Virus record (IMG/VR): IMGVR_UViG_3300035210_000132
Location: 156,596 to 199,134 of that record
Length of the DNA stretch: 42,539 bases
Origin: a virus
Strand: one strand, 5' to 3'
The position numbers and the translations under genes were made by a program. Below the pieces are notes generated by a model. That model was not told the origin of the DNA. It worked only from the letters and a program-made list of their open reading frames with translations, and did not search any database. Shown in pieces: positions 5,401 through 41,734 of this stretch (positions within the stretch are counted from its first letter, which is position 1; every line of letters starts with the position of its first letter).

Positions 5401-6167
5401 CCCTTGGACCACTCGACCCATGGAGAGAGAGTCGTGTTGTTGTTCTGATCCTGGGCCCGGAAGCCCGAACCCTCGACCCGATACTCGACGTCCTTGCTGG
5501 CAAAGCCAAGGAGCAGATTGGCAGAACCTCCTGCCCGTACGGTGATCGAAGCCGAGACGCCCCAGAGCAGGGAAGCGATCTGCACCCTGGAGTTACTGCC
5601 TTCGATGACTATCGAGGCAACGTCCTCGCCTACGGCATTGTTGATCTGAGCAGCGATCTGCTCGTCCGTAAGCGTTCCTCCTCCGATCGATGCGAAGGTG
5701 ACCGCCACGTCCTGAGTGACGTTCAAGCGAGCAGCGATGTCGACCCCGAGAACTAGAGTCAGTCCATCTAGGGCCAAGCCTCCGGAGGTAGAGAAAGCCT
5801 TGGTGCGTACCGCAGGGCGGGTAGCTTTGTTGACCGAGGCCAGGAAAGACTCTCCAGGAGAGTGCTCGAGCTCCCGTAGAGCTCCACCGAACTGGAAGAA
5901 GGTCTTGATGGTGTCTTCTTCGACATCCACCTCAGCGATGTTCTTGCGTGGGGAGGGGAACGACGTCTGCGAGATCACTCTCGGCAGTTGCTCGTACGAC
6001 CCCTGCTTGGCAGAAGGGTTCAGGAGGCCATCCGCAGTGGTGACCTCAACGATCTCTTTGGCAGCTCCCACCACCAAAGGAACCAAAGTAGGACGGATGA
6101 TAGTCGGAGCCACCGACCGAATCTGTTGAATAACTTCGACGCCTGGTCTAGCAAGTTCGGCAGCCAT
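2463..6167 (-). CDS. Putative contractile tail sheath protein (1234 aa) with a very large Thr/Ser/Gly-rich middle region.
   Basis: The C-terminal ~200 aa (...QLNVMAAGGAYILVQEAPGAPLISRHQLTT...REYSITKVIDYCAKFLRVGL...FIGTFNITTPFLDTLSSVIQGMLGFLAEAGVILGG...DTVLVDVTLNVPFPCNYIRLTISI) fits my recollection of the conserved sheath C-terminal domain: V/I-N-V-x-R...GxGxxVWGARTL, YxNVRRL, and a terminal PAEFVIIxI-like strand. ATG at 6167 with GAGGAG RBS. The middle is T/S/G-rich with beta-strand-like repeats, consistent with inserted Ig-like domains. Confidence 0.45.
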   Translation of the reverse strand: MAAELARPGVEVIQQIRSVAPTIIRPTLVPLVVGAAKEIVEVTTADGLLNPSAKQGSYEQLPRVISQTSFPSPRKNIAEVDVEEDTIKTFFQFGGALRELEHSPGESFLASVNKATRPAVRTKAFSTSGGLALDGLTLVLGVDIAARLNVTQDVAVTFASIGGGTLTDEQIAAQINNAVGEDVASIVIEGSNSRVQIASLLWGVSASITVRAGGSANLLLGFASKDVEYRVEGSGFRAQDQNNNTTLSPWVEWSKGAYLKDGVVQNALETYVNGSAAFGFVDATGSFGTFQASGLTFTGNGSIDVKVGDEFYANGVKPNGAVVMKVEATRFKLGTINAKLSVYDTNGKLVSAVYDESKVSTVYAGVPFSPRYGWFMAKNLKTSTVPTAAVLAGTTIGSDATTGTVEAPGAGTYPVSLTGLTLRVDLVVNGVEVDTQVMTFSGPSFANVADVVTALNGMTHTGFFAHTDQGGTKLALSTNITGAHQQLLLQGSSTALTALGFVAGTNYTGLGKDSEFVDITATLLGGTQNFPFTPTGTLVVERSSDGGLTWTAGSKTFTFPDSTPIATITDLVTALNTASSWDGTTLPTDFAISNVGNKLKLTSVGKGSLVGLRIGSSSTGIGVAAATTLLFTGGAYDLGEENLNGLTLKFKLNDRSKVYSVLFSSDSLPDAVAAINEAVSWPVASVNGAGTSLVLTSTIKGYASKIEVVTDAGSVKANAALGFSVQGSSSFGSGRPNPDFYLDVSGNVVLNGEILRSQLTGSPFSPGVSDIYIQYRGLRKDVSPVAKNPGMLRISDLATLQTVLSPLRSDNPLGLGMYFQLINAPTLQCAGLGVDEISAGSPYGTSAAFARAANLIEAEEVYAIAPLTDDETVHQIFKTHVETMSAPEQKGERIVITCPSVPLRAVDDVVSSGLSGNSTATENEFVLDANPNAGLVSRGLEPLELSYRDQVFLETTVESELRRYLVTAVNGTLVTVTQTFTIGQNADSFYSLTPLNVSVINADWSLKVRGDELLIPGSTLPDKDLTADTVQTRASTFKQRRMLYVFPDMVKASISGTEELLPGFYACAAIAGMTAKYPPQQGFTNLPMTGFTGVVGSNDTYSPKQLNVMAAGGAYILVQEAPGAPLISRHQLTTDLTQIETREYSITKVIDYCAKFLRVGLRKFIGTFNITTPFLDTLSSVIQGMLGFLAEAGVILGGDLNNLAQDSTAPDTVLVDVTLNVPFPCNYIRLTISI

Positions 6168-17817: not shown

Positions 17818-20800
17818 CTAGGCTGCCTCAAGAACTGCGCCCATCTGGGCCAGGGACGCCACCACACCGGCATTGGAGAGGTGCAGGTCCCTATCAGTGT
17901 ATGCCCCTGCTAGATACGCAAGCGAATCGGGGCCGAGTACGCTTGCTGACGAGACCTTGTCGATCCCACAGGCGAAGGCCTCTGCCAGGCTCCCTCCAAA
18001 AAAATTAGAGCAGAGCTGGGGATCGGAGGTCAGGAACAGCGAAATCTGGTTGGCCTTCTTGAGAAGAGCGCGACGGTAGCCGTTGTAGGCTGCCGCCAGC
18101 TTCTTCATGATCGGAGTGTCTGAGGTGTGCGGGGAAGGCTTACTAGCATGCCTTAGCTTGGAGGATCGAGCCCGAAGTGGTCCTTCGGCAGCGCTGCGAT
18201 CTCTACCAAAACCTAGGGAGGTTAGCAGGCTCTTCAGTCTTTGATCGACATGCTTGGCCCCGACGGGGATGGCATCGTCGACTTCGTCGGAGGGCCCGAA
18301 GGTCATGTGCTTGCGATCCAGGTCATCTGCTAGCTGCCGGTCACCCATCTGGATCAGGACAATCCGCTGAAACTCACGAGGCTTCAAAACGATACCCATC
18401 ATACCTGTGGTCGAGCAGGCTGTGCCAAGAGGTAATTTGCCCATTCGATCAAGCACGTCATTGGGTAGGTCGCGTTCTGAGCTTTCTAGCCGAGGCAGGG
18501 TCTTTTTGGTAAAGGGACCTGCTGGTATATCTTTAAGTATCTCGCTGAGCTTCTTGTGGGAAGCGTATTTTTCCGGAGTAATCCCAAAGATCGCCGAAGC
18601 TTCCTTCTCTAAGGAAGGAGCAGGCTTCTTCTCTTTGCCATCGCCGTTGTCCCCAAAGAGAGCTTGTAGGGCAGAAACCTCGACTTCATGAATCTCCCCG
18701 AAGTGCTCCTTGGCCCCTCCCATATGATGATCATAGGAGGCCCTAGCAGCAGCTTCCGAGGGATAGCCGATCATCACCTTGTTCTCATCGAAGGAGCCGT
18801 CCTTCTTGAGCTGCTTGATGACGTAGGCCTTCTTGGCGCTCTTGTCGGGGCCCAGGTAGACGTCGATCTCTTCACCATCGGCGTCCTTGGTTCCGGGGAT
18901 GTAGCCGTAGTGCGCCTTCATGAAGCGCTTGTACTTGACGACGCCGTTCTTCTTGTACTGCCGGGTCTCGCCCTTTTTCCACTCGATGTGGATGGGGACG
19001 TCCTGGTGTAACACCTTCTCCTTGATGGGGTCGTTGGCCGTTTTCTCCTTGCGGGTGGCCTTCTGCCGATCTCGATCCTGCTTCTCCTTCAGCTTCTGCG
19101 GATGGTCCTGGAAGTACTGGAGCATGTCCCCACAGGCCAGCTTGGCCATCTGGACAGCCTGCTGGAGAGCTGATCCAAGTTTCTCTGCCTGTCCCGAGGC
19201 ATCGATGTTGCGCTCTGGTTCGGCATCAGGGGTGCTGGTGCTCTTCTCGTACTCGGTGTAGAGCTTCTTGGTGCTCTTCTTTTTCTTCTCTTCGTCGCCC
19301 ATGAGCTCTTGCTTCATGCTCTGGAAAAGCGACGCAACTTTGGGTAGCCCCCCAACAGGAGGAGGAACACCTTCCCCGCGCAGTACGTTGGGACCTCTCA
19401 CCCGTTGAAATCGGAAGGGGTTGGCGAGGGGCTTGTACTCCGAGAGAGCTGGGGGAATCGCCGGAGCGTCAACTACCTTCTCATAGAAAGGGGAGTCGCT
19501 GACAGCACTCGTGCCTTGTCCCCTATACGGCCGAGGAAGCTCGGCGTGACCTCTTGGATCAACGGCTATGTGGTGTGTCCAGGGACCCTGCGCTCCTGGA
19601 GGGATCTTCCCTAGATCGTAGGCCCGCAGATTTTGAGGCACTACTCGTTTCTTAGCGGGCCCTACGTACCCTCCTGAGACTGAAGGGATGCCGCTGAACC
19701 ACCTAGGGCCTTCGCCAACATCGGCCCCAGGAACACTACCTCGGTACGCAAGACTCTCCGGATGAACTCCCGGGTGCTGAGCCGCCATTTCCGGAGTCAG
19801 TGTCTCAAGATTTGGAAGTTCAACCACATCGTTGGGAGAGTGCCGACCGGAGGCCATGATCTGCTCGGTTCTCGGATCTCGCGCATGCTGCACCTGAGCA
19901 AGCAGCTTCTTGTCGTACCAAGGCGCTGAGGGATAATTCGTCCTTTCGAGGGCCTCTGCTGGTCCGTAGGCGCGAGATCTCAGAAGACGGACAGTGGCGT
20001 CACTATGATCCCTTACGTACTCAGGGTAAGCAACGTTGGTAGCCGGGGAGAGCATCCGGTTGGCAATGGCCTGGCCTTCTGGACCGGTCGAGAGAATACC
20101 CTTGATGTGCTTTGTCGCAGACGCCCCTTGACCAGGAACGGTCTTAGAGGCAGCGGCAACGATGCGAGCCATCTGCTTCTGCCCTACAGCGGCCTTCAGA
20201 ATCGAGGCGTACTTCGTGGAAGGCGCTACAGTTCTGTAGTCATGGGTCTGAGTCAGAGGACCTGCCCCAGCACGATCTAGGTACGGAGGCTTAGAGACAA
20301 CTGCCCTACGTACAGTAGAAAGAGGCGAGGAGATAGCGCCAGGAGCTTTAACTGCAGGCAGAACCGCCGTCGTGGCTCCAGGAGAAGCAGGGCGCCAAGG
20401 AATAGAGGCAAGCTTCGCCATCACCTTGGCGGTCTTGTCTGCACCGATGAAGACGAAGGAGATGTCGAAGAACTTGGGGGTATCGTTCCTGACTCCGACC
20501 TTGCGTCCATCCGGGAGGATCTTGTTCATCATCGACTTCGCATGACTACAATAGTCACTGCGAGTCCTAGACTTGTTCTCACAGATGGTGCAAACGTCGT
20601 AGGGCACTTTGCAGCCCATCGACACGTCTGGATACTCGCCGTTCTCGATGCGCTCGATGAGATCGTAGGCGTCGAACTTCTTGCAGAGGGCCCTATCCAG
20701 GTAGATGACGAGCTCCACCCGGTGCATCTTCGGATTCCAGACAGCCAGCTCAACCCTACCAAAGGCCTTCGATGGATCCTTGTTGCTATGGTGCTTGTAA

Positions 20801-21159
20801 GGGAAGGCGTTCATGAAAGTGGGGAAGCCATAGTCCCACCGCTTGCCTACTTCGCGCATCTCCTCAGGAGAGAGCTGGTTCCAGTTGGGAGGCGCATGGA
20901 GAAGCGACTTCTCGGTAAAGATGTCCCCGTTGACGTTCTGGCCCCAGTACTCCGAGGCTCCCATGGCGTTGACGAGGACATAGATCCCTGCTGGCGTAGG
21001 ACGAACCGTACCTACAAAGTCCTGCACTGCGGGGTGTAGCTTCGAGCGCATCTCTTGAGAGGCAGCAGTCTTCTCGAGACCTTTGCCCACGAAGAGAGGA
21101 AGGCAGTTGATGTGCCCCTGCTCGTCAATACCCTTGAAGTGGCAGTACTTGATCATCAT
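17818..21159 (-). CDS. Large multidomain morphogenesis protein (1113 aa). The N-terminal ~250 aa resemble an HK97-family prohead serine protease. The remainder is uncharacterised and includes a lysine-rich linker and a segment VPIHIEWKKGETRQYKKNGVVKYKRFMKAHYGYIPGTKDADGEEIDVYLG.
   Basis: The N-terminus (...FPYKHHSNKDPSKAFGRVELAV...DVSMGCKVPYDVCTIC...) matches the recalled S78 pattern: a His in a nHd....iGkV context and a Ser in an SxG context. Translationally coupled to the upstream gene with a 9-nt gap. Confidence 0.4.
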   Translation of the reverse strand: MMIKYCHFKGIDEQGHINCLPLFVGKGLEKTAASQEMRSKLHPAVQDFVGTVRPTPAGIYVLVNAMGASEYWGQNVNGDIFTEKSLLHAPPNWNQLSPEEMREVGKRWDYGFPTFMNAFPYKHHSNKDPSKAFGRVELAVWNPKMHRVELVIYLDRALCKKFDAYDLIERIENGEYPDVSMGCKVPYDVCTICENKSRTRSDYCSHAKSMMNKILPDGRKVGVRNDTPKFFDISFVFIGADKTAKVMAKLASIPWRPASPGATTAVLPAVKAPGAISSPLSTVRRAVVSKPPYLDRAGAGPLTQTHDYRTVAPSTKYASILKAAVGQKQMARIVAAASKTVPGQGASATKHIKGILSTGPEGQAIANRMLSPATNVAYPEYVRDHSDATVRLLRSRAYGPAEALERTNYPSAPWYDKKLLAQVQHARDPRTEQIMASGRHSPNDVVELPNLETLTPEMAAQHPGVHPESLAYRGSVPGADVGEGPRWFSGIPSVSGGYVGPAKKRVVPQNLRAYDLGKIPPGAQGPWTHHIAVDPRGHAELPRPYRGQGTSAVSDSPFYEKVVDAPAIPPALSEYKPLANPFRFQRVRGPNVLRGEGVPPPVGGLPKVASLFQSMKQELMGDEEKKKKSTKKLYTEYEKSTSTPDAEPERNIDASGQAEKLGSALQQAVQMAKLACGDMLQYFQDHPQKLKEKQDRDRQKATRKEKTANDPIKEKVLHQDVPIHIEWKKGETRQYKKNGVVKYKRFMKAHYGYIPGTKDADGEEIDVYLGPDKSAKKAYVIKQLKKDGSFDENKVMIGYPSEAAARASYDHHMGGAKEHFGEIHEVEVSALQALFGDNGDGKEKKPAPSLEKEASAIFGITPEKYASHKKLSEILKDIPAGPFTKKTLPRLESSERDLPNDVLDRMGKLPLGTACSTTGMMGIVLKPREFQRIVLIQMGDRQLADDLDRKHMTFGPSDEVDDAIPVGAKHVDQRLKSLLTSLGFGRDRSAAEGPLRARSSKLRHASKPSPHTSDTPIMKKLAAAYNGYRRALLKKANQISLFLTSDPQLCSNFFGGSLAEAFACGIDKVSSASVLGPDSLAYLAGAYTDRDLHLSNAGVVASLAQMGAVLEAA

Positions 21160-24049: not shown

Positions 24050-24616
24050 GTGGATACAGACGTGTATCTGCGAAACCCCCTCTCTGGAGGCCTCATGGAT
24101 CACCATGTCCCGAGTGTCAATAGTGACCAGACACCCCAAACCCCCCAAACCCCTCTGCCCACTGCGGCAAACCCGTTCACCGAGCTGAGCCAGAATCTGG
24201 CGAACCTGGCGGCCCAGGTGGCCCGGCAGCACCAGGACTTCTCTGTGCTGAAGGGCTTTGTCGAGGCGCTGGCCAAGAACCAGCAGGCTGCCCCGGCTCC
24301 GGCTCCGGCCCCGGCTCCGGTCCTCGACGAGGCGCGCATCCGCGCCATCGCCGGAGCGGAAGTGGAGCTGAGGATCGGAAACCTCGACCGGCGCATCAAG
24401 GACGAGGTGGGAGCCGAGATGGTCAACCTGAAGGTTGACCTGCACCGGTACACGGACAAGGAGTTGGACCGCAGGCTCGAACAGCTGCGGTCGATGGTCG
24501 CCCAGGAGGGGCAGCACCCGGGGTTCTGGGACTCGGCCGTGCAAGGGTCGGGGTTCCTGTTCCCCATCGCCCTCGGCGGCGGTGCGGCGTACGCTGTCAA
24601 GAAGATCTTCTTCTAG
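24050..24616 (+). CDS. Tail-anchored membrane protein (188 aa by the GTG start; alternative ATG at 24095). Q/T/P-rich N-terminus, (PA)n linker, coiled-coil, C-terminal transmembrane helix GFLFPIALGGGAAYAVKKIFF.
   Basis: C-terminal hydrophobic helix followed by KKIFF-stop was read directly. AGGAGG lies upstream at 24029-24034. Contains a (CCGGCT)5 hexamer tract. Confidence 0.55.
   Translation: MDTDVYLRNPLSGGLMDHHVPSVNSDQTPQTPQTPLPTAANPFTELSQNLANLAAQVARQHQDFSVLKGFVEALAKNQQAAPAPAPAPAPVLDEARIRAIAGAEVELRIGNLDRRIKDEVGAEMVNLKVDLHRYTDKELDRRLEQLRSMVAQEGQHPGFWDSAVQGSGFLFPIALGGGAAYAVKKIFF
24292..24321. repeat. Imperfect hexanucleotide tandem repeat (CCGGCT)x5 encoding PAPAPAPAPV.
   Basis: Read directly as ccggct ccggct ccggcc ccggct ccggtc. 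Confidence 0.7.
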
Positions 24617-24636: not shown

Positions 24637-24671
24637 AAAGGGGCCCGGCAATATGCTGGGTCCCTTTTTTT
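24637..24671. terminator. Bidirectional rho-independent terminator between the convergent membrane-protein gene and the terminase gene.
   Basis: AAAGGGGCCC...GGGTCCCTTT stem with one G:U wobble, followed by TTTTTTT. The A tract upstream makes it symmetric. The terminase stop codon (24670-24672) overlaps the T tract. Confidence 0.6.
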
Positions 24672-27564
24672 AGCTCCTAGGTGTATGGGCTGAGTTGGGA
24701 GCGATGACATCAGGGCGAGGGTTGCGGATCATCGAAGCCAGGAAGCACACCAAGATGGCGTGGAAGGTATCGTCGGTAGAGTTGGGGGACTTCTTGTAGA
24801 CGTTCTGGCGCAGCTGCTCAGAATATTCCGAAAAAATATTCAGCATGTCGGACCCAAAGGGATTCTGGAATTGCTCCCAATTGGGGAACCGGAAGACGTT
24901 GCGACGCTTGATGGCGTTGAAGACATCCGACATGACCTCGGTCCTATGCACCAGGAAGCGCTTGAGGCCATCCTGCCACTGGACCTTCGTCGAGGGCTGC
25001 GAGTACTGGTACTTGACAATTCTCTGAAAACCAAAACGCCGGGTGAGCTCATCGTTGGGCCAGAAACCACCACCGTAGTCACAGCCCACCAGCTGCACGT
25101 TGTACTGGTGGATCAGCTTGGAGATCTCGTCGATTTGAATCTCTGGCTCCGACTCCCGACCCTCGTAGCGGTGCACGTAGAAGATGGAGAACTTGCCGTC
25201 ACCCATGTAGCATCCCAGGGTGAGAATAGTGTACGTACGTTCTCCTGTGTTCCCTTGGTAGGCGATGCAGCCATTCCTCTCAGTGACGATGTACCCGGAG
25301 GGCACGGTGCAGCAGTAGACCTTGCCGTTGTAAGGAACCTTCTCGATTCTCGTGCTGGGAGAGTTGAAGTGGTGATCCTGACCCCGAGACCACAGGACTC
25401 TCCAACGAGCCTTGCGGCCTTCCGATGCAGGCTTGTGCAAAACGAGCTTCGCTCGTAGCCCGAGCTTGATACACATCTCCTGGAAGTCTTCGCAGAGGCC
25501 CTTCGAGGTCGAATAGTAGGCTCCGTTGTAGTTCCCGGTCCTCGTATCGACGTGCCCGTCACCCAACATCATGGCCCAGAACAAGATGGAAAGCTGACGA
25601 CTCGAGAGTTCCAGGAACTGACGAGGGATCCTCTTCGTGTCGCCGGTGCGACCGACGTTTTTATCTACCCAGTCCCAGAACTGCTTGCCGCAGATGGTCC
25701 AGTTAACGTCCCCAGTCTTGGGGTTCGGGAACTCTGAGAACGGGATGTCATTACGACGGAAGCACTCTCGGATCTGAGCCACTCTCTCGGCGTTGACGGT
25801 TTCGCGCTGGGAGAGCTTGATGCAGTAGGGCTTTCCTTCTCTCAAGCAGAGACCGCCCTCGGACAGGTAGTACCCGAGGAACTCCAGCCATCCATCCATG
25901 CGGAACAGCGCATCCGAACTTCCCTGATAACCAGGAGACGTAGGCAGACCTGGAAGAACGAAAGCATCTTCTTCCTTGCCGAGCCAGATCACGGATCCGG
26001 CGAACTTCACGTGACCTCCACGCTCAGCAACTTCTCCGGCCGACTCCGTGACCCAGTCTTGCCACTCTCCGCCAGCTTGGGGCCGCACCCTCATCCGATG
26101 GGTGTGGGTGAGCATCATGTCGATGTTCTTCGACTTGAAGTGGAGAAGCGGCTGATCCCAGTCCCTGACCGTTCTGACTTTAGGAGTGACGTAGGACATT
26201 TCCCGCGTGGCTGGATCCCACTGCGCGACTTTGTCCTCGTCCGTCAAATCCTTGAAGTGAACGAACCCTCTAGGGGTGAGGATTTTGGTCTGTTCATCAT
26301 GGCAGCCCCAGTCAATTCCCGCATAGACAGGAAAAGCACCGCCGATGAAGTTGCGTATCTGTTCTTGATATTCCGTGGTCAGGAGCAAGCGGCTATCGCA
26401 GTTGTCAACCACGTCCTGACGAGTAAGAGGCCGGGTACCAGAGTCATATGACAGCCCCAACACTTCATTGTAGAAGCTCGGGCGCGAGTAGGTCTTCTGC
26501 TTCTGCAGGATGTCTTGATGGCCCACCCAGGGCACCATCAGCTGGGGGATGCGGTAGCCCTCGTAGGGACGGGGGATCTTCAGGTCCGGGTTCAGCGACA
26601 CCCACTGCGCCATGGGATCGCTGGCGGTGATGGCCTTCTTGCACTTCTCGCAGATCAGGCTCTCCGGACCGATGTGGTCTTCCGTGAGGATGTTCCAGTA
26701 GACTCGGGTGACCTTGCCGCCCCCTTGGATGCTGTGCCGATGGCAGGGCACGGCCCACTCGTTCTGGGTCGAGAAGTTCACCCAATAGTACTCCATGGTG
26801 TTGTCGAGAGACTTGGGCGTTCCTGAATAGATGAACAAACCTCCCTTGTGCTCCTCCCCGTTGATCATGAGCACAGAGTGGGAGGCACACTCCTCGATGA
26901 CGGGGATGTTGTCGGTGAGCAGGTCCTGAAGCTCATCCAAGCAAATCACGTCAGCCGGGATACCACGAACACGGTCGGCGTTCAGGTACGAGTAGCGCAG
27001 CGTGATCTGGCTGCGGTTGATGAACTTCTTCAAGAAGACGTTGTCGCTGAGCTTGGTGGTGGTCCAAGACTTGAGGTACGGTGAGGTCTCGATGGGTTCT
27101 TTGAGCCTGTCTTGTGAGAACACCTTGGTCTGCATGTTCGTGGGAGCGACATACAGGGAGTTCAGGGCGGTGTTGATGCAGGAGTAGGAGAGGAGCTTGT
27201 TGCCCAGCATGGTCGACTTTTCGACCTGCCGACCGCACTTGAGGAGGATATTCTTGGCTGGGGTGTCGTAGATCTGCTTTAGGTAGTGCCGATCGGCGAA
27301 AGAGAAGGGCTTGTACGTCTGCGACTTCTTGTCCGGCATCATGATGGCGAACTGCGTGAACTCAGAAGGAGTGATAGAAACCATCTCCCCCATCTTCTGG
27401 TTCAAGAACTCGACATCGAAGGTATCTTCTGGGTCAGCCTCGACATCCCACTCTTCAGGGAGGTTGATGCTGTGGTAATTCCGATCGTCGTAAGTAACTG
27501 TATGGTGTTCTTGTTCCCGTTCCCAACTTGACCGATCTTCTATGATCTCGAACGCCATAGACAC
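24670..27564 (-). CDS. terL: Terminase large subunit (964-aa precursor; ~612-aa mature protein after intein removal).
   Basis: Deviant Walker A KCGRQVEKST and Walker B ICLDE in the N-terminal ATPase domain. Nuclease motif AGIDWG with the extein resuming TGERTYTILTLG (RNase H-like beta strands). C-terminal region typical of TerL. The coding sequence is interrupted by an intein. Confidence 0.88.
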   Translation of the reverse strand: MSMAFEIIEDRSSWEREQEHHTVTYDDRNYHSINLPEEWDVEADPEDTFDVEFLNQKMGEMVSITPSEFTQFAIMMPDKKSQTYKPFSFADRHYLKQIYDTPAKNILLKCGRQVEKSTMLGNKLLSYSCINTALNSLYVAPTNMQTKVFSQDRLKEPIETSPYLKSWTTTKLSDNVFLKKFINRSQITLRYSYLNADRVRGIPADVICLDELQDLLTDNIPVIEECASHSVLMINGEEHKGGLFIYSGTPKSLDNTMEYYWVNFSTQNEWAVPCHRHSIQGGGKVTRVYWNILTEDHIGPESLICEKCKKAITASDPMAQWVSLNPDLKIPRPYEGYRIPQLMVPWVGHQDILQKQKTYSRPSFYNEVLGLSYDSGTRPLTRQDVVDNCDSRLLLTTEYQEQIRNFIGGAFPVYAGIDWGCHDEQTKILTPRGFVHFKDLTDEDKVAQWDPATREMSYVTPKVRTVRDWDQPLLHFKSKNIDMMLTHTHRMRVRPQAGGEWQDWVTESAGEVAERGGHVKFAGSVIWLGKEEDAFVLPGLPTSPGYQGSSDALFRMDGWLEFLGYYLSEGGLCLREGKPYCIKLSQRETVNAERVAQIRECFRRNDIPFSEFPNPKTGDVNWTICGKQFWDWVDKNVGRTGDTKRIPRQFLELSSRQLSILFWAMMLGDGHVDTRTGNYNGAYYSTSKGLCEDFQEMCIKLGLRAKLVLHKPASEGRKARWRVLWSRGQDHHFNSPSTRIEKVPYNGKVYCCTVPSGYIVTERNGCIAYQGNTGERTYTILTLGCYMGDGKFSIFYVHRYEGRESEPEIQIDEISKLIHQYNVQLVGCDYGGGFWPNDELTRRFGFQRIVKYQYSQPSTKVQWQDGLKRFLVHRTEVMSDVFNAIKRRNVFRFPNWEQFQNPFGSDMLNIFSEYSEQLRQNVYKKSPNSTDDTFHAILVCFLASMIRNPRPDVIAPNSAHTPRS
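25249..27304 (-). mobile_element. Intein (~352 aa, TerL residues 421-772) with an embedded LAGLIDADG homing endonuclease, inserted right after the catalytic GIDWG nuclease motif.
   Basis: Intein block A (C-HDEQTKILTPRGFVHFKDL), block B (MMLTHTHRM), two LAGLIDADG-like motifs (LEFLGYYLSEGGL and ILFWAMMLGDGHV), block F (VYCCTVPSGYIVTERNG) and a C-terminal ...CIAYQGN followed by Thr at +1. The penultimate residue is Gly instead of the usual His. Confidence 0.78.
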
Positions 27565-35416: not shown

Positions 35417-38400
35417 TTAATAGTAGTGCGGCCTTTCTTTCGTGCCCAAGCCAAATTCGCTCCCACGCGCGTAAGCTGGGATCGGGTTACTCCCGTGCAG
35501 GTCTGTCTTCCAACCCTTTGCCGTACCCTCGAGAAGAGTGTGACGGAGCTCCTGGAAATTCAGGCGGGCCAGCCAGTCTTCGTGCTGATCCCTAGCCATC
35601 TGCTCCGCTCCTCTCAGGATCGGTTCATGGAGGATAGGCTTGCCTCCAGACTTGAGGTTCTTGTTGAAGTCCTCGACCACGCTTCTCTGAGCAAAGTCTC
35701 CATGAAGATGCTCTGAGTCTCCTGGATCTTTCACCTGTGTGATGTTGGTCAAGGCGCGAACCACGGTTTCGATGTTACGCCGCTTTACCCGGGCATCCTT
35801 GTAGACCGAGGTGTGGAGCTGATCTGTCAGGAAGTTCTGCACTTGATGAATGTCAGTATACTTGAGGAGGTCTCTTGGATTAATAAGACCGTCAGAGAGA
35901 GCTTCGCCTTTCTTGACGTCCATCCCAGTTTTCAAGGGCTGTCCCTCATACATCGGCTCACGCTGGGCCGAGATGAAGTGCTTCTCTCCTCCCACAAAAA
36001 TGTTCCAGCCATTGGTGGCTATGTCTTTCTCTATCTTCTGGATAGGGCCAGAAGCGCGAGAAAGCACGGCGGCGTTGCGTAACACCTTGGGCATCTCGAG
36101 CAACTGATTCAAGCGATCGAACTTGGTCAAAGATCCCCCTCCCTTGGAAGAGGCCACACCACCTGTGTGGAAGCTATCCATGGCCAACTGGGTTGCGGGC
36201 TCTCCCATGGCATGCCCAGCAATGACCCCAATGTTGGCACCCACCTCGTGAGTGTTCCCACTCTCGTTGAGGCCGTAACACTTGGCGCAAATGCCTTGGT
36301 GGTGAGCACACTTCAGAGGAGAGCGCACCACCACTTTGTCGATGTTGTGCTTCTTGAGAGTGGCTAGTAGGTTGCCGTCTATCAAAGACCCTGCTGCGAT
36401 GCTCTGGCCTCCGGGAAGCTTCACAGGAGCCGCCAAGTAGCGATCGGCGACGTCGTCCTCGGAGGTATGCAGCATGATGCCTTGGGTAGTGCCGCAGTCC
36501 TTGGACTCGATCATGTTGGGGATGACAACGTTGACAATTTCCTTGGTCAAACGCCCAGGCTCCGAGGTCCCTTCTACCTTCTGGATAGTGCCCTTGCGTG
36601 CTCCATGCATGGCCGTCCAGTAGTCTCCTGTGTCCAGGCCCTCAGAGTAAGACTTCTTCACAGGCGTAGTAAGCACATTCCCTAAAGCATCTTGCATGAG
36701 CATTGGAGCGATCGTCATCTGACGAAACTGGTCCATACTGCTACGTGCCCCAGAGTTCACCATCATGTAGGCATTGTTCTGAGACTTCTCGAAGAGAGGT
36801 CGTGTGTCCCTGACCATGTCCGAGGTAGCCTGTGTGTAGATGCCTATGACACGTTCTTTCTTCTGCTCGGGAGCAAGCTTGCTGTCACTGTGTATCTTGG
36901 CCACTTCGGCGTCGGCCTTGCGCAGAATGGCGTCACGGATTTCTTTGTGAACAGTCAAGTCGCTAAGGTTCAAGGTCGACCCCAGCTCGTAGCTGTACTG
37001 GTTACCTAGATTCTTCAGGTTATCAACAGTGACGGGGAAGTTCTTCGGGTCTTCCTTGGCAATGCGCCCTAGTAAGTTGTGCACCCCAAAACGCTTCTCG
37101 TCTTTCTTGTCTGTACGCTTGACGAACACGAAGTTAGGGTCTTGGAACAGACCGATGATCGCCGGGTCATGGCGAATTGATTCTGGTAGGTGCTCAGAGA
37201 TCAACTCGCGCCCTAGGGTAGTCTTCTTGCTTGCGATGCTCACTACGTCGTTGACGTGCAAAGCGCTCTGCGCTTGTGCCTTCTTGGCTTCTGCTAGCGT
37301 ATGAAAGCTCTTCCCTGTCTCCTTGCCCCACTTCGAGAGCATGTGCAGCCCTAGCATTGACTCGTGGTCAGGCGCATACATGATCCCGCCTGTGGTGCTG
37401 GAGAACAAGTTGTTCGACGGAAACATCTTGTGCGCCTCTTTGACGGCATCGTCCCCAAGGGGAACGAAGGCAGACATAGCATCGCCATCAAAGTCAGCGT
37501 TGTAGCCCGTGCATACCAGGGGATGGATCTTGATGGCTCGGCCTTCTACCAGCTTGGGCTTGAAGGCCATAACCCCAAACTTGTGGAGCACGGGGTCGCG
37601 CTTGAGTAGAATGGGCCGTTTGTCCATCGCTGCTTGCAGGGAGTGCCATGCAATCTTGGAACCTTGCTTGATCTCTTTCAGGGCCTGAATCGGGTCGTAG
37701 CCACTGAACTGCATCTCCCTGACCACGAACGGCTTGTAGAGCTCCATCGCTGAGTCTTTCGGGATGCCTACGTGATCCAGATCCATAGAAGGTTCTGGGA
37801 TGATGGTCGAGCGCATCGATAGCTCTTGCCGTCGCTTCATGAGCTTCTTCTGGAAGTAACCTTCTTTGGGAGAGGTCCCAGAAATGGTGTCCAGAATGCC
37901 CTTCATCTTGCGGTTGGACTCGTAGAGGGGCTTACCTCCAGGAAGTCCAGCTAGACCTCGGGTGTACTCGTAGAGATCTTCCCTGAGATCCTTCAGGCCC
38001 TCGTCGCCGAGCTCCTTCGGGGCCTCTTTGTACTGCTTGATGACGTGCCCGAGCGACTTGTAGTAGTAGTTGATGTCGTCTGGACGGAGGGCTCCGTCTG
38101 GCATGGGGACGATGGGGCGGTAGACAGGAGGCAGAACAGGTATGTGGTTCAGCATGTAAGCCTCCGTTGGCTTCATGCCGATACCGTCCAGGGCTTGCAG
38201 GAACTTGGTCTTGCGGTTGGCTTTGTCTAGCTGTGAGCCGCGAAGAGAGCCTAGGCTGGCCTTAACCTTTACCAGCTCCTCCTTGACGTTGATCTTCGCC
38301 AAGAGGCTATTGATCGCTGCCCCTCCGGTCTTGCCATCGATAGAAGTGTGGCCTCTAGCTATTTCCTCGAACTCATCGAACTTAAGACCCGTAAGAACAA

Positions 38401-41400
38401 CAGCTGGACCAGGGTGCTTGTTAGTCCCAACAAAGACCGGGTTAGGGACCGGCTCTGGGAGCGATATATGTGACCACTTAAGTCCCTTCCCCACATCATT
38501 TGGCAGCCCTCCTGTGATCTTGGGGTCAAAGAGACCCCTCTCCAGTTCCTTGGCATCTTTGCCTCGAAGCACGCGTCCGGCGTCTAGCAACTGGCCATTC
38601 GACATGGAGAGAATACCACTGTCTGTCAAAGGCTGGAGGACCAAACTGTTGCCCTCCTTTTTGACATTGACCCCTAGCCCGGTAAGCATCGCCTCGAACT
38701 TCTTGTAGGCGAAGGGGATCTGGGGAGGGGGAAGGGGTTGGCCGGTCTGCACCCGCTGCCAGAAATCGATGTGCTCTGCTGGGTTGTTACGATCTCCTGT
38801 ATGCTGCTCTGCCTTGTAGGTGGCCATCTCGCGAAGGTTAGCTCGAGCTCCGTGAGCCAGCATCGCATAGAGCTCTAACTGGCCCATTGCCTGTCCAGGG
38901 TGCTCGGCCCCTGTGCCCTTCGGAGATCTGTCCAACGAGTAGTTAGGCCCGTTGGAGCGTACCGACATCTTCTTCTCGACCTGATGCTTGAGCTTGAGGA
39001 TGTACTGGTTGCCTTGAAAGATCTCCCCTAACTTCTTGCCAGTGGCCCCATCGAACAAGGTCTCGGTGTCTGAAATGTTGTGGGCCTTGAGCTCATCTTT
39101 GATCTTCTGGGTATAGTCGGTACCATCACCGCTGAAGTTCTGGATGAGGTAGGGCTTTCCTGTCTTCTGCGCGATCTTGGCAGCAGCTGTCTCGAGAAGC
39201 TGACCTAGGTTGATGCGAGAAGACACCCCCGAAGGGTTGAGCAGCATCTGGACGTGCTCCCCATCAGGGCCACCGATGCGGGGCATCTCGTGATCGGGGA
39301 TGATCTTCGTGATGATACCTTTGTTGCCATGACGACCTACGATCTTGTCGCCAATCTCCGTGGGCTCTAGGGTCTTGACATGAACCGTGACTTCTTTGCC
39401 GTTCGGGTTCTTCGTGACCTTGACGACTTCTCCTTCGTGCTGGTTGTCCCAGACCACGGACTTGTCCCGGATGGCGAAGAGCTTCTTGTCTAGGCGGCTA
39501 ACGGCGCGAGCGCTCTCGCCTGTAAGATCTCGCTTGCCTATAGCAGCAAGCAAAACATCACCAGGCATGACCTTCTGTCCTACTTGAATCACCCCATCAT
39601 CACCAAGCTTGTTCATCTGCTCTTTGGTGAGTTGGCTAGCTGTAGTCGAGGCGAAGGCGACGAACTTCTTCTTGTCGAGGAAGTCTTTCTCCGGATCGAT
39701 CTCGATGCTGTGCCGGTGCACGTGCTCCGAGGTCAGCTTCTTGGCCCCTGACTCGGAGATGACCACCCCGTCCTCGAAGTTGTAGCCTTTGTAGGGCATG
39801 TAAGCGACGCGAATGTTGGTACCTAGAGAAAGCACACCATCCTTGGTGAAGTTCGAGTCAGCGATGACCTGGCCCTTCTTCACAGCATCACCAACCTTCA
39901 CATTCAGGTCGGAGTGCATACAGGTCTTCGTGTCATTCAGGGGGAAGTGGTTGTAGACCTGTATCTCATGCTTCTTGCCATCATGACTCTGAAGCACTAA
40001 CGAGGAAGGATAGCCGTTAACGGGGTCTTTCTTGATGGCTGCCACGTGACCATCGAAGGGGGACTCGTGGGACCAAGGAGTGCCAACGATCCTTTCCCAG
40101 GATTGGCCAGAGCCTGATTTGACCTGTACTTGAGGCTGCTCCCGATAGTGCAGACCGATGGCCTGGGACAGCTGCTTCGAGGCCACCATGGTACGATTGC
40201 CTTGATCGTTCTGCAGGAACGGGATGAGATTGGTGCTCTCATCGAAGAGCTGGTTCGCTGACATGAGCACGTAGCGTCCCTGGGAGAAGGGCTTCTCTAC
40301 GATCTCGTGGGTCTTTGGGTCCTGCATCTTGACTGCGGAAGCTATCGGGGTCGGTTTGCCCTTCACCCACTTCACCTGGTCAGGAAGGACGATCTGTCCT
40401 GTGTGCAGCTCTGCGGGAGTGACTCGTATCTGCTTACCGGTCTGCAGGTCGTGTACGAGGGTGGTGACCTCGTTGCCTTCTTTACGAACTCCTAGAGGTA
40501 GGTGCAGGGTGATCCCAGTACGACCATCAGGAGTGTGCACTGGATCAAGAAAGCCAAGATGCGAAGGGTCGATGATCTGCATCTCCGCCGTGACCGTCTG
40601 CTCGTTCTTGATGCCGCCTTCATCGGGAGCGATAATGGTAGTGACTCGGTGGTTCGACAGCATCTCCAGGGGATTGACCTGTTCTGGGGTCCTGGCTGTC
40701 TGGGACTTGGAAAAGTACTCGTGGATCGGTTTGGCGAAGAACTCCCCCGCGATGATGTCGCGTACTTTGACTTGCCGATCTATGTTGTTGCTGACCTTCT
40801 GCCGAATGGCAGCTTTGGTCTGAGGCTTGACTAGCTTCTCGTGCAAGAAGTCATCGAGAGAGTGCAGCTGCTTGAAGATGAGAGAATCGCGATTGTCCTG
40901 AGGGATATCCCCACGAGCCACCTCGAGGATACGCTTGGAAGCTAAAAGAAGAGCCTCCCCGGTCACACTGGTGATGGGCTTACCCAGAGTTGCCTTGGTG
41001 GTCTCAGGCAACAGCTTGGCTGCATCAAAAGTAGACCAGATAGCCGCTAGCTTGTCATCGTGCTTGTCAGATACGGCCTTGACTCCTCGAGTGGCCATCT
41101 TGTCGTAGAGGTCAGAAGCTTGTTGCTGGACTTGCTTGTCGTTCTTGAGGTTGGCCTTGTAAATCGCATCGCCCCAAGTCTTCTTCATCTCCTCATCGGA
41201 GACCCCGAGGTTTCTGAGCATGGAGTACAACGGGTAGTTGCTGCTCTCGAACTTGAGGTGGAAAGACTTCTTCTCGGGATCGAAAGGGATGTATACTCTC
41301 GAGGACTTGGCGAGGGGGGTGGCCAAGTTGAACTCAGCCTGCATCTTGCCGTTTTGCTTGATGTGAGCGTAGACCCCAGAGCGTAGTCGCCAGACGTTGT

Positions 41401-41734
41401 CGACCTGCTTCTCCGTGCCATTGACGATGTAGCTGTAGCGCTGAGTGGGCTTGGGCAAGGTGAAGAGCTTGATCTTCTGCCTATCGATCTCCTTTCCTGT
41501 CTCTTTATCAACAAGCCCCACCTCACCATAGACCGTTGCCCCCCAAGTGCGGCCAAGGGCCTTGGCTTCTTCTTGTGACTTGAGATCGGCAGTTACTGCG
41601 CCCTTCTCATCAAAAGAAATATCGTGAAGGACAAGAGAGTTTTTACGACCCTCGATAGGAAAGTTCTCCTTGATGCCCGCGCTGACGCGAGTGCGGAGAT
41701 CTTCCCAGGTTTTGTCAATTAGACTTAAAGCCAC
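35417..41734 (-). CDS. rpoBC: Single-chain multisubunit-type RNA polymerase (2105 aa): bacterial beta homolog (residues ~1-1000) fused in-frame to a beta-prime homolog (~1001-2105). The beta-prime N-terminal zinc-finger region is absent.
   Basis: Beta motifs read directly: YIVNGTEKQV, LNPSGVSSRINLGQLLET, GDKIVGRHGNKGIITKI (GRHGNKG at 39317-39337), YILKLKHQVEKKMSVRSNGPNYSLDRSP...GQLELYAMLAHGARANLREM. Beta-prime motifs: MLNHIPVLPPVYRPIVPMPDG, RSTIIPEPSMDLDHVGIPKDSAMELYKPFV, PILLKRDPVLHKFGVMAFKPKLVEGRAIKIHPLVCTGYNADFDGDAMSAFVPL (NADFDGD at 37481-37501), and the C-terminal Zn site CGTTQG...CAHHQGICAKCYG. GTG start with AGGAG 7 nt upstream. Confidence 0.93.
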   Translation of the reverse strand: MALSLIDKTWEDLRTRVSAGIKENFPIEGRKNSLVLHDISFDEKGAVTADLKSQEEAKALGRTWGATVYGEVGLVDKETGKEIDRQKIKLFTLPKPTQRYSYIVNGTEKQVDNVWRLRSGVYAHIKQNGKMQAEFNLATPLAKSSRVYIPFDPEKKSFHLKFESSNYPLYSMLRNLGVSDEEMKKTWGDAIYKANLKNDKQVQQQASDLYDKMATRGVKAVSDKHDDKLAAIWSTFDAAKLLPETTKATLGKPITSVTGEALLLASKRILEVARGDIPQDNRDSLIFKQLHSLDDFLHEKLVKPQTKAAIRQKVSNNIDRQVKVRDIIAGEFFAKPIHEYFSKSQTARTPEQVNPLEMLSNHRVTTIIAPDEGGIKNEQTVTAEMQIIDPSHLGFLDPVHTPDGRTGITLHLPLGVRKEGNEVTTLVHDLQTGKQIRVTPAELHTGQIVLPDQVKWVKGKPTPIASAVKMQDPKTHEIVEKPFSQGRYVLMSANQLFDESTNLIPFLQNDQGNRTMVASKQLSQAIGLHYREQPQVQVKSGSGQSWERIVGTPWSHESPFDGHVAAIKKDPVNGYPSSLVLQSHDGKKHEIQVYNHFPLNDTKTCMHSDLNVKVGDAVKKGQVIADSNFTKDGVLSLGTNIRVAYMPYKGYNFEDGVVISESGAKKLTSEHVHRHSIEIDPEKDFLDKKKFVAFASTTASQLTKEQMNKLGDDGVIQVGQKVMPGDVLLAAIGKRDLTGESARAVSRLDKKLFAIRDKSVVWDNQHEGEVVKVTKNPNGKEVTVHVKTLEPTEIGDKIVGRHGNKGIITKIIPDHEMPRIGGPDGEHVQMLLNPSGVSSRINLGQLLETAAAKIAQKTGKPYLIQNFSGDGTDYTQKIKDELKAHNISDTETLFDGATGKKLGEIFQGNQYILKLKHQVEKKMSVRSNGPNYSLDRSPKGTGAEHPGQAMGQLELYAMLAHGARANLREMATYKAEQHTGDRNNPAEHIDFWQRVQTGQPLPPPQIPFAYKKFEAMLTGLGVNVKKEGNSLVLQPLTDSGILSMSNGQLLDAGRVLRGKDAKELERGLFDPKITGGLPNDVGKGLKWSHISLPEPVPNPVFVGTNKHPGPAVVLTGLKFDEFEEIARGHTSIDGKTGGAAINSLLAKINVKEELVKVKASLGSLRGSQLDKANRKTKFLQALDGIGMKPTEAYMLNHIPVLPPVYRPIVPMPDGALRPDDINYYYKSLGHVIKQYKEAPKELGDEGLKDLREDLYEYTRGLAGLPGGKPLYESNRKMKGILDTISGTSPKEGYFQKKLMKRRQELSMRSTIIPEPSMDLDHVGIPKDSAMELYKPFVVREMQFSGYDPIQALKEIKQGSKIAWHSLQAAMDKRPILLKRDPVLHKFGVMAFKPKLVEGRAIKIHPLVCTGYNADFDGDAMSAFVPLGDDAVKEAHKMFPSNNLFSSTTGGIMYAPDHESMLGLHMLSKWGKETGKSFHTLAEAKKAQAQSALHVNDVVSIASKKTTLGRELISEHLPESIRHDPAIIGLFQDPNFVFVKRTDKKDEKRFGVHNLLGRIAKEDPKNFPVTVDNLKNLGNQYSYELGSTLNLSDLTVHKEIRDAILRKADAEVAKIHSDSKLAPEQKKERVIGIYTQATSDMVRDTRPLFEKSQNNAYMMVNSGARSSMDQFRQMTIAPMLMQDALGNVLTTPVKKSYSEGLDTGDYWTAMHGARKGTIQKVEGTSEPGRLTKEIVNVVIPNMIESKDCGTTQGIMLHTSEDDVADRYLAAPVKLPGGQSIAAGSLIDGNLLATLKKHNIDKVVVRSPLKCAHHQGICAKCYGLNESGNTHEVGANIGVIAGHAMGEPATQLAMDSFHTGGVASSKGGGSLTKFDRLNQLLEMPKVLRNAAVLSRASGPIQKIEKDIATNGWNIFVGGEKHFISAQREPMYEGQPLKTGMDVKKGEALSDGLINPRDLLKYTDIHQVQNFLTDQLHTSVYKDARVKRRNIETVVRALTNITQVKDPGDSEHLHGDFAQRSVVEDFNKNLKSGGKPILHEPILRGAEQMARDQHEDWLARLNFQELRHTLLEGTAKGWKTDLHGSNPIPAYARGSEFGLGTKERPHYY

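Follow-up and report, generated by a model that had tools for sequence, protein, structure and literature searches.

A predicted class 1 intein with a LAGLIDADG endonuclease beside the presumed catalytic aspartate of a phage large terminase

INTRODUCTION

The large terminase gene (terL) in a 42,539-nucleotide (nt) stretch of viral DNA (IMG/VR record IMGVR_UViG_3300035210_000132, positions 156,596 to 199,134; hereafter, the window) encodes a protein, TerL, containing a 352-amino-acid (aa) segment that a preliminary description of the DNA had named as an intein. The locus raises the questions of what this segment is, where in the terminase it lies, by which chemistry it would leave the protein, and whether it is still mobile. 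Terminase is the commonest intein host in actinobacteriophages (10.1101/2025.01.02.630785; PMC5050341), and the TerL inteins of mycobacteriophages splice and carry endonucleases that cut intein-less alleles (PMC5050341). The analysis reported here indicates that the window segment is probably a full-length, functional class 1 intein with an embedded two-motif LAGLIDADG endonuclease, carried by an uncultured tailed phage within its terL. Coordinates are those of the window, features lie on the minus strand unless marked plus, and a slash within a residue string marks a splice junction.

RESULTS

Identification of the segment as an intein

The TerL precursor open reading frame (ORF) spans positions 24670 to 27564 and encodes 964 aa when counted from the GTG codon given in the ORF list. 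Within it, the intein occupies positions 25249 to 26304, corresponding to aa 421 to 772, and the codons at its borders were read directly from the DNA: Cys1 is TGC (26304-26302), Asn352 is AAC (25251-25249), and the following Thr+1 is ACA (25248-25246). The junctions are GIDWG/CHDEQTKI on the N side and CIAYQGN/TGERTYTILTLG on the C side, where the extein reads TGERTY. The preliminary description of a 352-aa intein running from Cys1 to Asn, with Thr at +1 and the C-extein resuming as it stated, was therefore borne out. The interval that it gave, 25249-27304, was right at its start and 1,000 nt too high at its end; positions 26305 to 27304 belong to the N-extein, and the correct end of 26304 agrees with the description's own length of 352 aa.

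Relatives of TerL were collected from ∼5.8 billion proteins, yielding 2,246 at E values of ≤1e-5, of which the best 120 were analyzed. Five of these, 620 to 623 aa long and ∼70% identical to the window TerL, were intein free. The single gap in their alignment coincided to the residue with the 352 aa, and they read ...PVYAGIDWG-TGENTYTV... across the site, so that this comparison, which the preliminary description had proposed as a check, confirmed the exact junctions. The five proteins form one tight group, with 83 to 89% identity among themselves. In the DNA of one intein-free allele (locus L001), the site reads ...GCCGGTATCGACTGGGGT/ACTGGTGAGAACACGTAC.... The other 115 homologs carried an insertion at the GIDWG site, cleanly delimited in 113 of them; nearly all of these inserts begin with CHD followed by E or D and end with YQGN, and the +1 residue is always Thr or Ser.

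An AlphaFold model of the intein, built on 90 sequences, had a predicted local distance difference test score (pLDDT) of 96.5 and a predicted template modeling score (pTM) of 0.93. When searched with Foldseek, it matched the TliVMA (7qsu), PhoVMA (7qst), PI-SceI, PI-PfuI, and PI-TkoII inteins, with E values from 3e-16 to 1e-9 and a probability of 1.00. These best fold matches share the arrangement of a HINT splicing fold with an inserted two-motif LAGLIDADG domain but differ in being only 9 to 14% identical, in having a penultimate His and Asp at position F:4, and in having cellular host proteins (vacuolar ATPase, ribonucleotide reductase, and family B DNA polymerase [PolB]). The Pfam Intein_splicing model gave no match on the window TerL. 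The large terminase family PHROG 675 matched the window protein (E = 1e-57) in two stretches, with the break and restart at the proposed intein junctions. Because the segment is exactly absent from homologs, is predicted to adopt the HINT and LAGLIDADG folds, and has conserved splicing blocks A, B, F, and G, it was identified as an intein containing a LAGLIDADG endonuclease. Hundreds of copies are present in public metagenomes, some bearing the Joint Genome Institute (JGI) label "intein/homing endonuclease." The G+C content was 0.55 to 0.60 inside the intein versus 0.50 to 0.55 in most flanking intervals; with no clear contrast, composition was dropped as a sign of recent acquisition.

Insertion site in the nuclease domain

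The window host protein is a gpA-like large terminase, with a Pfam GpA_ATPase match above the cutoff at aa 99 to 315 (E = 2e-10) and Walker A and Walker B motifs reading GRQVEKST and DELQD. Alignment with the intein-free homologs divides the extein into an N-extein of aa 1 to 420 (26305 to 27564), comprising the ATPase domain and the first nuclease-domain strand and ending ...PVYAGIDWG, and a C-extein running from TGERTYTILTLG to the stop codon (24670 to 25248), which would form the remainder of the nuclease domain. To place the junction in the fold, a model of the intein-free homolog P0105 was used (pLDDT of 85). It matched the full-length terminases T4 gp17, HK97, Sf6, T7, and D6E, and the spliced TerL product thus corresponds to a complete TerL fold. 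In this model, D423, the equivalent of the GIDWG Asp418 of the window, ends strand 418-423, which is the first strand past the ATPase domain and is also the strand that closes the N-extein, and it is invariant across 70 sequences. Two further acidic positions in the C-extein portion are likewise invariant: D482, which closes strand 476-482, and D584/D585, where the last long helix begins. All three positions fall at strand or helix ends, as expected for such a nuclease. The intein-free homolog had no nuclease-domain match in Pfam even at E values of ≤10.

In the terminase nuclease of phage G20c, the essential metal ligands are D294, D347, and D429, and loop L0 (residues 295 to 301), which follows D294, lies in the active site (PMC5389553). 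By analogy, Asp418 of the window (GAC, 26311 to 26313), two residues before the junction, is the presumed metal-binding catalytic Asp, a placement consistent with its invariance, its modeled strand, and the fold matches. The intein would then interrupt the loop corresponding to L0, two residues beyond the first metal ligand, and would split the nuclease active site. The nuclease-domain location given in the preliminary description holds to this extent: the insertion is two residues past an invariant Asp that ends the first RNase H-like core strand, and the catalytic role of that Asp is presumed.

Like the TerL inteins of mycobacteriophages and actinobacteriophages (PMC5050341; 10.1101/2025.01.02.630785), the window element is a LAGLIDADG intein, with predicted splicing, in a large terminase and beside catalytic motifs. 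It differs from the mycobacteriophage inteins in its host, which is gpA-like whereas theirs are of the Terminase_1/6 type, and in its site. All seven published mycobacteriophage TerL intein sites are in the ATPase domain (PMC5050341), and comparison with them, which had also been suggested in the preliminary description, showed the nuclease-domain site of the window to be different from each. A 2025 preprint mentions no nuclease-domain site, and both of the sites that it details are in the ATPase domain (10.1101/2025.01.02.630785). No close sequence relationship was detectable between the window intein and those of mycobacteriophage and actinobacteriophage TerL. The nuclease-domain site is an insertion point distinct from the published actinobacteriophage sites, and in a partial coverage of the literature, no paper describing a TerL intein at such a site was found. 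Inteins target the most conserved catalytic motifs, and a site beside the presumed catalytic Asp fits this rule.

Splicing blocks and the Gly-Asn ending

Residue conservation was scored across 90 intein sequences of the TerL-site family. Invariant residues were C1, H69, E149, Y330, C331, R343, and N352, together with V334, G337, T341, E342, and G345, while T66, R70, M71, D249, Q350, and G351 were conserved in at least 90%. The N-terminal half of the splicing domain (aa 1 to 110; 25975 to 26304), with blocks A and B, was recognized by this conservation and by a match to the split intein AceL NrdHF (6zgq; E = 3e-6 over ∼100 aa), the only significant sequence match to a solved structure. Block A opens with Cys1, in the context C-H-D-E. 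The block B core, T66-H-T-H69-R70-M71 (26092 to 26109), places Thr66 at B:7, His69 at B:10, Arg70 at B:11, and Met71 at B:12; in the alignment, T66, H69, R70, and M71 map onto S65, H68, R69, and M70 of AceL NrdHF, in agreement with the published numbering (PMC7891396).

Block F, V329-Y-C331-C332-T-V-P335-S-G337-Y338-I-V-T-E-R343-N-G345 (25270 to 25320), was assigned by alignment to Mja KlbA (2jmz), whose IYD pairs with VYC and so puts Cys331 at F:4. This invariant Cys, mechanistically the more interesting residue, had been left unmentioned in the preliminary description. Position F:13 is Tyr338 and not His. Block G, C346-I-A-Y349-Q350-G351-N352 (25249 to 25269), was read from the sequence and from the family and clade counts, with Gln350 at G:5, Gly351 at G:6, and Asn352 at G:7; it is followed by Thr at +1 (codon 25246-25248), a position filled by Thr or Ser throughout the homologs. 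Blocks A, B, F, and G, whose absence the preliminary description had named as grounds for refuting an intein, are conserved in the family. All of the residues obligatory for a class 1 intein are present: Cys1 was found in 114/114 family members, block B has the form TxxH, and Asn352 is followed by Thr or Ser. The modeled fold is that of HINT. Both of the His residues that usually assist Asn cyclization are absent, the penultimate one being replaced by Gly351. A penultimate His at G:6 is frequent in inteins but not obligatory.

The C-terminal QGN is found in 109/114 inteins of the TerL-site family. When the intein alone was searched exhaustively against 1.84 billion cluster representatives, 374 matched at E values of ≤1e-30, and from the resulting clade 117 full-length representatives were examined. 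Cys1 and the terminal Asn were present in all 117, the penultimate Gly in 116, and Cys at F:4 in 110, with Ser, Asp, or Ala at F:4 in about seven; the +1 residue was Thr or Ser in 111. Further residues kept in the clade are Thr at B:7 (104/105), Lys or Arg at B:11 (74/105), His at B:10, Met at B:12, and the invariant Arg343. Only 12 of the 117 lie at the TerL D(W/Y)G site. The other hosts are of phage type: portal proteins (at a recurrent NRA/.../TA site), a fused beta/beta-prime RNA polymerase, a PolB, and DUF559 nuclease-domain proteins. The nearest relatives in cultured phages, found by tblastn, are the nucleotidyltransferase inteins of Cluster C1 mycobacteriophages, which align over their full length at ∼25% identity (E of ∼1e-17 to 1e-19) but are distant in sequence and occupy another host protein; no closer relative was found in cultured phages. 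The Gly-Asn ending is therefore the rule in the TerL-site family and in a large phage intein clade, not an oddity of the window copy. The preliminary description was right that the intein ends QGN/T but overemphasized this as a notable variant, given these counts and the precedents that have been published.

Among those precedents, the mycobacteriophage Bethlehem gp51 recombination directionality factor (RDF) intein has a penultimate Gly and splices fast, and a Gly-to-His change slows it; phage class 1 inteins are frequently without the penultimate His (PMC5050341). The window intein is like that of Bethlehem in being a phage class 1 intein with a penultimate Gly, but the host proteins differ. 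AceL NrdHF ends in G145-N146; the change G145H abolishes its activity, since His would clash with Arg69 at B:11, and Arg69 itself hydrogen bonds with the C-scissile carbonyl, with R69A slowing splicing (PMC7891396). In the same intein, a Pro-Gly kink in block F accounts for the missing block F His (PMC7891396). As H-R-M and a C...P.G block F are both found in the window intein as well, Arg70 at B:11 most likely takes the role of the missing penultimate His, and a kinked block F (C331...P335...G337) would explain the absent block F His. The two inteins further share Met at B:12, Cys at F:4, the lack of both assisting His residues, the Gly-Asn end, a hydroxyl residue at +1, and a phage or metagenome origin. 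AceL NrdHF differs in having Ala as its first residue, Thr at G:5, and a class 3 mechanism established experimentally (PMC7891396), and in being naturally split, without an in-frame endonuclease, in a ribonucleotide reductase gene, whereas in the window intein Cys1 is invariant, G:5 is Gln, B:7 is Thr, and one continuous chain includes the LAGLIDADG domain.

The LAGLIDADG domain and its mobility

The endonuclease domain (approximately aa 111 to 315; 25360 to 25974) was delimited with Pfam LAGLIDADG_3, which scored 25.6 bits on the window TerL against a cutoff of 22.5, and by Foldseek matches of the central domain to I-DmoI, I-SceI, and I-Tsp061I. In the model, each of the two motifs forms a helix that is followed by beta strands, as in a two-motif monomeric enzyme, so the two motifs reported in the preliminary description are real. 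Motif 1 is the helix at aa 136 to 149 (MDGWLEFLGYYLSE-GG; 25852 to 25899) with the invariant, putatively catalytic Glu149, and motif 2 is the helix at aa 235 to 249 (RQLSILFWAMMLGD-G; 25555 to 25602) with its counterpart Asp249. In the wider clade, these positions are Glu in 100/105 and Asp in 103/105 representatives.

Selection on the intein is purifying. Mean pairwise identity was 61% for the endonuclease, 61% for the N-terminal HINT half, and 55% for the extein, and the intein was more similar than the extein in 92% of 3,741 pairs. Against the nearest relative with DNA available (locus L002), nonsynonymous divergence (dN) was 0.078 for the intein versus 0.18 to 0.21 for the exteins, and amino acid identity was 88% versus 71 to 77%. 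Synonymous divergence was rejected as a transfer clock, since these sites are saturated (proportion of synonymous differences [pS] of 0.64 to 0.89). The similarities of intein and extein were only moderately correlated (r of about 0.5), and discordant pairs occurred in both directions, with extein and intein identities of 54% and 85% in one case and 86% and 61% in another. At the same GIDWG/TGE site, the 958-aa homolog P0013 carries an intein (CYSEDT...AQSGN) that is 41% identical to that of the window, while the P0013 extein and the window TerL share 70% identity, and two intein lineages therefore appear to compete for this site. The coding sequence of the target is kept in intein-free alleles, with 45/60 nt identical across the junction, and the presence of the intein is polymorphic among the homologs. 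During coinfection, the endonuclease, through Glu149 and Asp249, would cut an intein-less terL at the GIDWG/TGE-coding site, and repair would copy the intein in. Such homing is proposed as the cause of the near-fixation in the TerL clade and of the mismatch between intein and extein. The endonuclease looks functional, the intein appears to have moved between TerL lineages, and the patterns fit continuing or recent homing. The probable mobility foreseen in the preliminary description is in keeping with the conserved endonuclease acids and the discordant similarities.

It was considered unlikely that the intein splices but no longer homes, the element being a fixed vertical passenger or its DNA-binding domain having been co-opted. 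Because 115/120 of the closest TerL homologs already bear the intein, few empty target sites remain. The identities of intein and extein are also positively correlated (r of about 0.5), and the five intein-free TerLs, which form one tight group, would be accounted for by one loss or by one lineage that was never invaded. The standard homing-cycle model, however, predicts decay of the endonuclease after fixation, and here the two LAGLIDADG acids, like the domain as a whole, are held by purifying selection, and the domain exceeds the extein in identity. The strongly discordant pairs, the second intein lineage at the same site, and the spread of related inteins over portal, RNA polymerase, and PolB genes likewise speak against a purely vertical passenger.

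Proposed splicing pathway and class assignment

In the pathway favored for a class 1 intein, terL would be translated as a 964-aa precursor. The intein would interrupt the loop that comes after the RNase H-like domain's first catalytic Asp, and the precursor should therefore lack a correctly built nuclease site. Cys1, aided by Thr66 and His69 of block B, would form a thioester at Gly420; Thr+1 would attack this thioester to give a branched ester; and cyclization of Asn352 would free the intein. The exteins would be joined as ...GIDWG-TGERTY..., a junction like that in the intein-free relatives. All of these steps were inferred from conserved residues. Filing the intein under class 1 over class 3 is likely to be correct because Cys1 is kept in 117/117 clade representatives while F:4 varies in about seven.

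Several points weigh against this account. Splicing, endonuclease activity, and inactivity of the precursor are all inferred. The presumed assignment of Asp418 as the catalytic Asp rests on its invariance, the model topology, and matches of the whole fold: when PDB sequences were searched with a profile of the TerL alignment, all hits were to inteins, with no residue-level alignment to a solved nuclease, and chaining through the 27%-identical TerL of Geobacillus phage GBK1 led to no PDB relative. The near-fixation of the intein, at 115/120, is equally expected of a vertically inherited element that no longer homes, and because synonymous sites are saturated, recent transfer is not cleanly separable from stronger constraint. 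Finally, three features are typical of class 3, namely, an F:4 position that is always Cys (Cys331), a +1 residue that is Thr or Ser, and a best solved-structure sequence match of class 3, so that Cys1 is the probable rather than the certain first nucleophile.

A class 3-like or hybrid mechanism is nevertheless rather improbable. In it, Cys331 and not Cys1 would form the first thioester, as a branched intermediate, and Cys1 would owe its retention to something else, such as a redox-sensitive Cys1-Cys331 disulfide. The invariance of Cys331 in the 90 family members, and its presence in 110/117 clade representatives, is what such a mechanism would lead one to expect. Thr or Ser at +1 in 111/117 is as in nearly all class 3 inteins, a few of which, bearing the class 3 triplet, do start with Ser or Cys (PMC2807308). 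The one significant solved-structure match, AceL NrdHF, is itself class 3 and, like the window intein, has H-R-M with Met at B:12, Cys at F:4, and a Gly-Asn end but neither assisting His. However, Cys1 is never dispensable in the clade, whereas F:4 can be Ser, Asp, or Ala. Class 3 inteins have no nucleophile at position 1, and of their triplet of Trp at B:12, Cys at F:4, and Thr at G:5, the window intein, with Met71, Cys331, and Gln350, has the Cys alone. Its block B is of the class 1 TxxH form, with T66 in 104/105 clade members, and inteins outside class 3 also have Thr or Ser at +1. Cys is moreover the second commonest F:4 residue across inteins (PMC4031507). Membership in class 3 proper, prompted by the AceL NrdHF match and by Cys at F:4, was rejected, as Cys1 never varies and the intein departs from the triplet at two of its three positions.

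There is also a small chance that Cys1 and Cys331, combined with the Gly-Asn end and Thr or Ser at +1, define a large uncharacterized subclass of phage inteins between class 1 and class 3. One possibility for such a subclass would be that the thioester is relayed from Cys1 to Cys331 and only then transferred to the hydroxyl residue at +1, and another would be a Cys1-Cys331 disulfide that renders splicing redox conditional. If the latter is true, a redox switch would gate maturation of the packaging nuclease in the window phage.

That the 352 aa instead make up a normal TerL domain confined to this lineage, or a dead remnant retained once the protein is mature, can be dismissed as extremely improbable. 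Although the segment is found in almost all close homologs and Pfam Intein_splicing does not match it, intein-free homologs lack precisely these residues, every residue of the splice junctions is conserved, the predicted fold is HINT with a PI-SceI-like architecture, the insertion is within an active-site loop of an essential nuclease, and the same type of intein occurs in unrelated hosts with the same Cys1...Gly-Asn/Thr or Ser boundaries.

Other terminase inteins and the surroundings of terL

TerL proteins with two inteins have been reported in crAss-like phages. Among the homologs analyzed here, 21/120, including P0001, P0002, P0015, and P0016, carry a second intein of ∼420 aa in the Walker A P-loop (GRQVEK/ST, equivalent to window aa 116/117). 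These inteins end in the canonical HN/ST, and their apparent first residue is Thr, Ser, or Cys. Either the boundary is shifted or there is no fixed N-terminal nucleophile, which could mean class 3. A third site, at Walker B (IPADVI/C(L)DELQ, equivalent to window aa 207/208), is occupied in P0004 and P0006 by inteins ending ...SGQ/C, with a C-terminal Gln in place of Asn and a penultimate Gly. A fourth site, FLNADR/C...HN followed by T or C, is used in four homologs, and P0030 has three inteins in one TerL of 1,627 aa.

The true start of terL is more likely the ATG at 27558, two codons downstream of the GTG, because the N termini of homologs read MPFQII or MAFEIV. The interval in question is 27556 to 27564; with the ATG start, TerL would be 962 aa long and all residue numbers would shift by two. 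The terL gene lies between two small ORFs, with RNase HII beyond one of them and a helix-turn-helix protein beyond the other, and this order is kept in intein-free and two-intein relatives alike. The small ORF downstream of terL (24050 to 24616, plus strand) coincides with a local peak in G+C content of 0.62 to 0.69 and encodes a low-complexity stretch rich in Pro, Ala, and Gln (PQTPQTPLP, APAPAPAPAP); ORFs occur at the same position in related loci.

Elsewhere in the window, a 2,105-aa ORF (35417 to 41734) joins Rpb2_3/6/7 (beta-type) domains at aa 351 to 1025 to Rpb1_2/4/5 (beta-prime-type) domains at aa 1367 to 2007. Its product is a fused multisubunit-type RNA polymerase of a phage-like genome; a related fused polymerase elsewhere (P0193) bears an intein of the same clade as the window intein. 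A 1,234-aa protein (2463 to 6167) matches a tail sheath family over its final 200 aa, and a 1,113-aa protein (17818 to 21159) has an InPase (PF18823) domain and matches minor head and virion protein families. No tRNA genes were found within the window. Because it encodes a tail sheath-like protein and the 2,105-aa fused polymerase, the window is part of a large contractile-tailed phage genome. Related contigs reach 200 kb. The best TerL match among 50,697 phage records was only 27% identical, with no close cultured relative.

DISCUSSION

The window intein is of a known kind at a new insertion site and leaves the current understanding of inteins and terminases unchanged. For the gene itself, the annotation of terL should be a 612-aa spliced terminase plus a 352-aa intein. 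A TerL intein is thereby documented in the nuclease domain, adjoining the presumed catalytic Asp, where surveys of actinobacteriophages had ATPase-domain sites only. The endonuclease in terL marks a likely hotspot of gene exchange between coinfecting phages. Cys1, Cys at F:4, Gly-Asn, and Thr or Ser at +1 together form the signature of a very large metagenomic clade of phage inteins, whose nearest characterized relative is the atypical class 3 intein AceL NrdHF. A single mechanistic study could sensibly be directed at this clade, which may also yield new tools for protein splicing.

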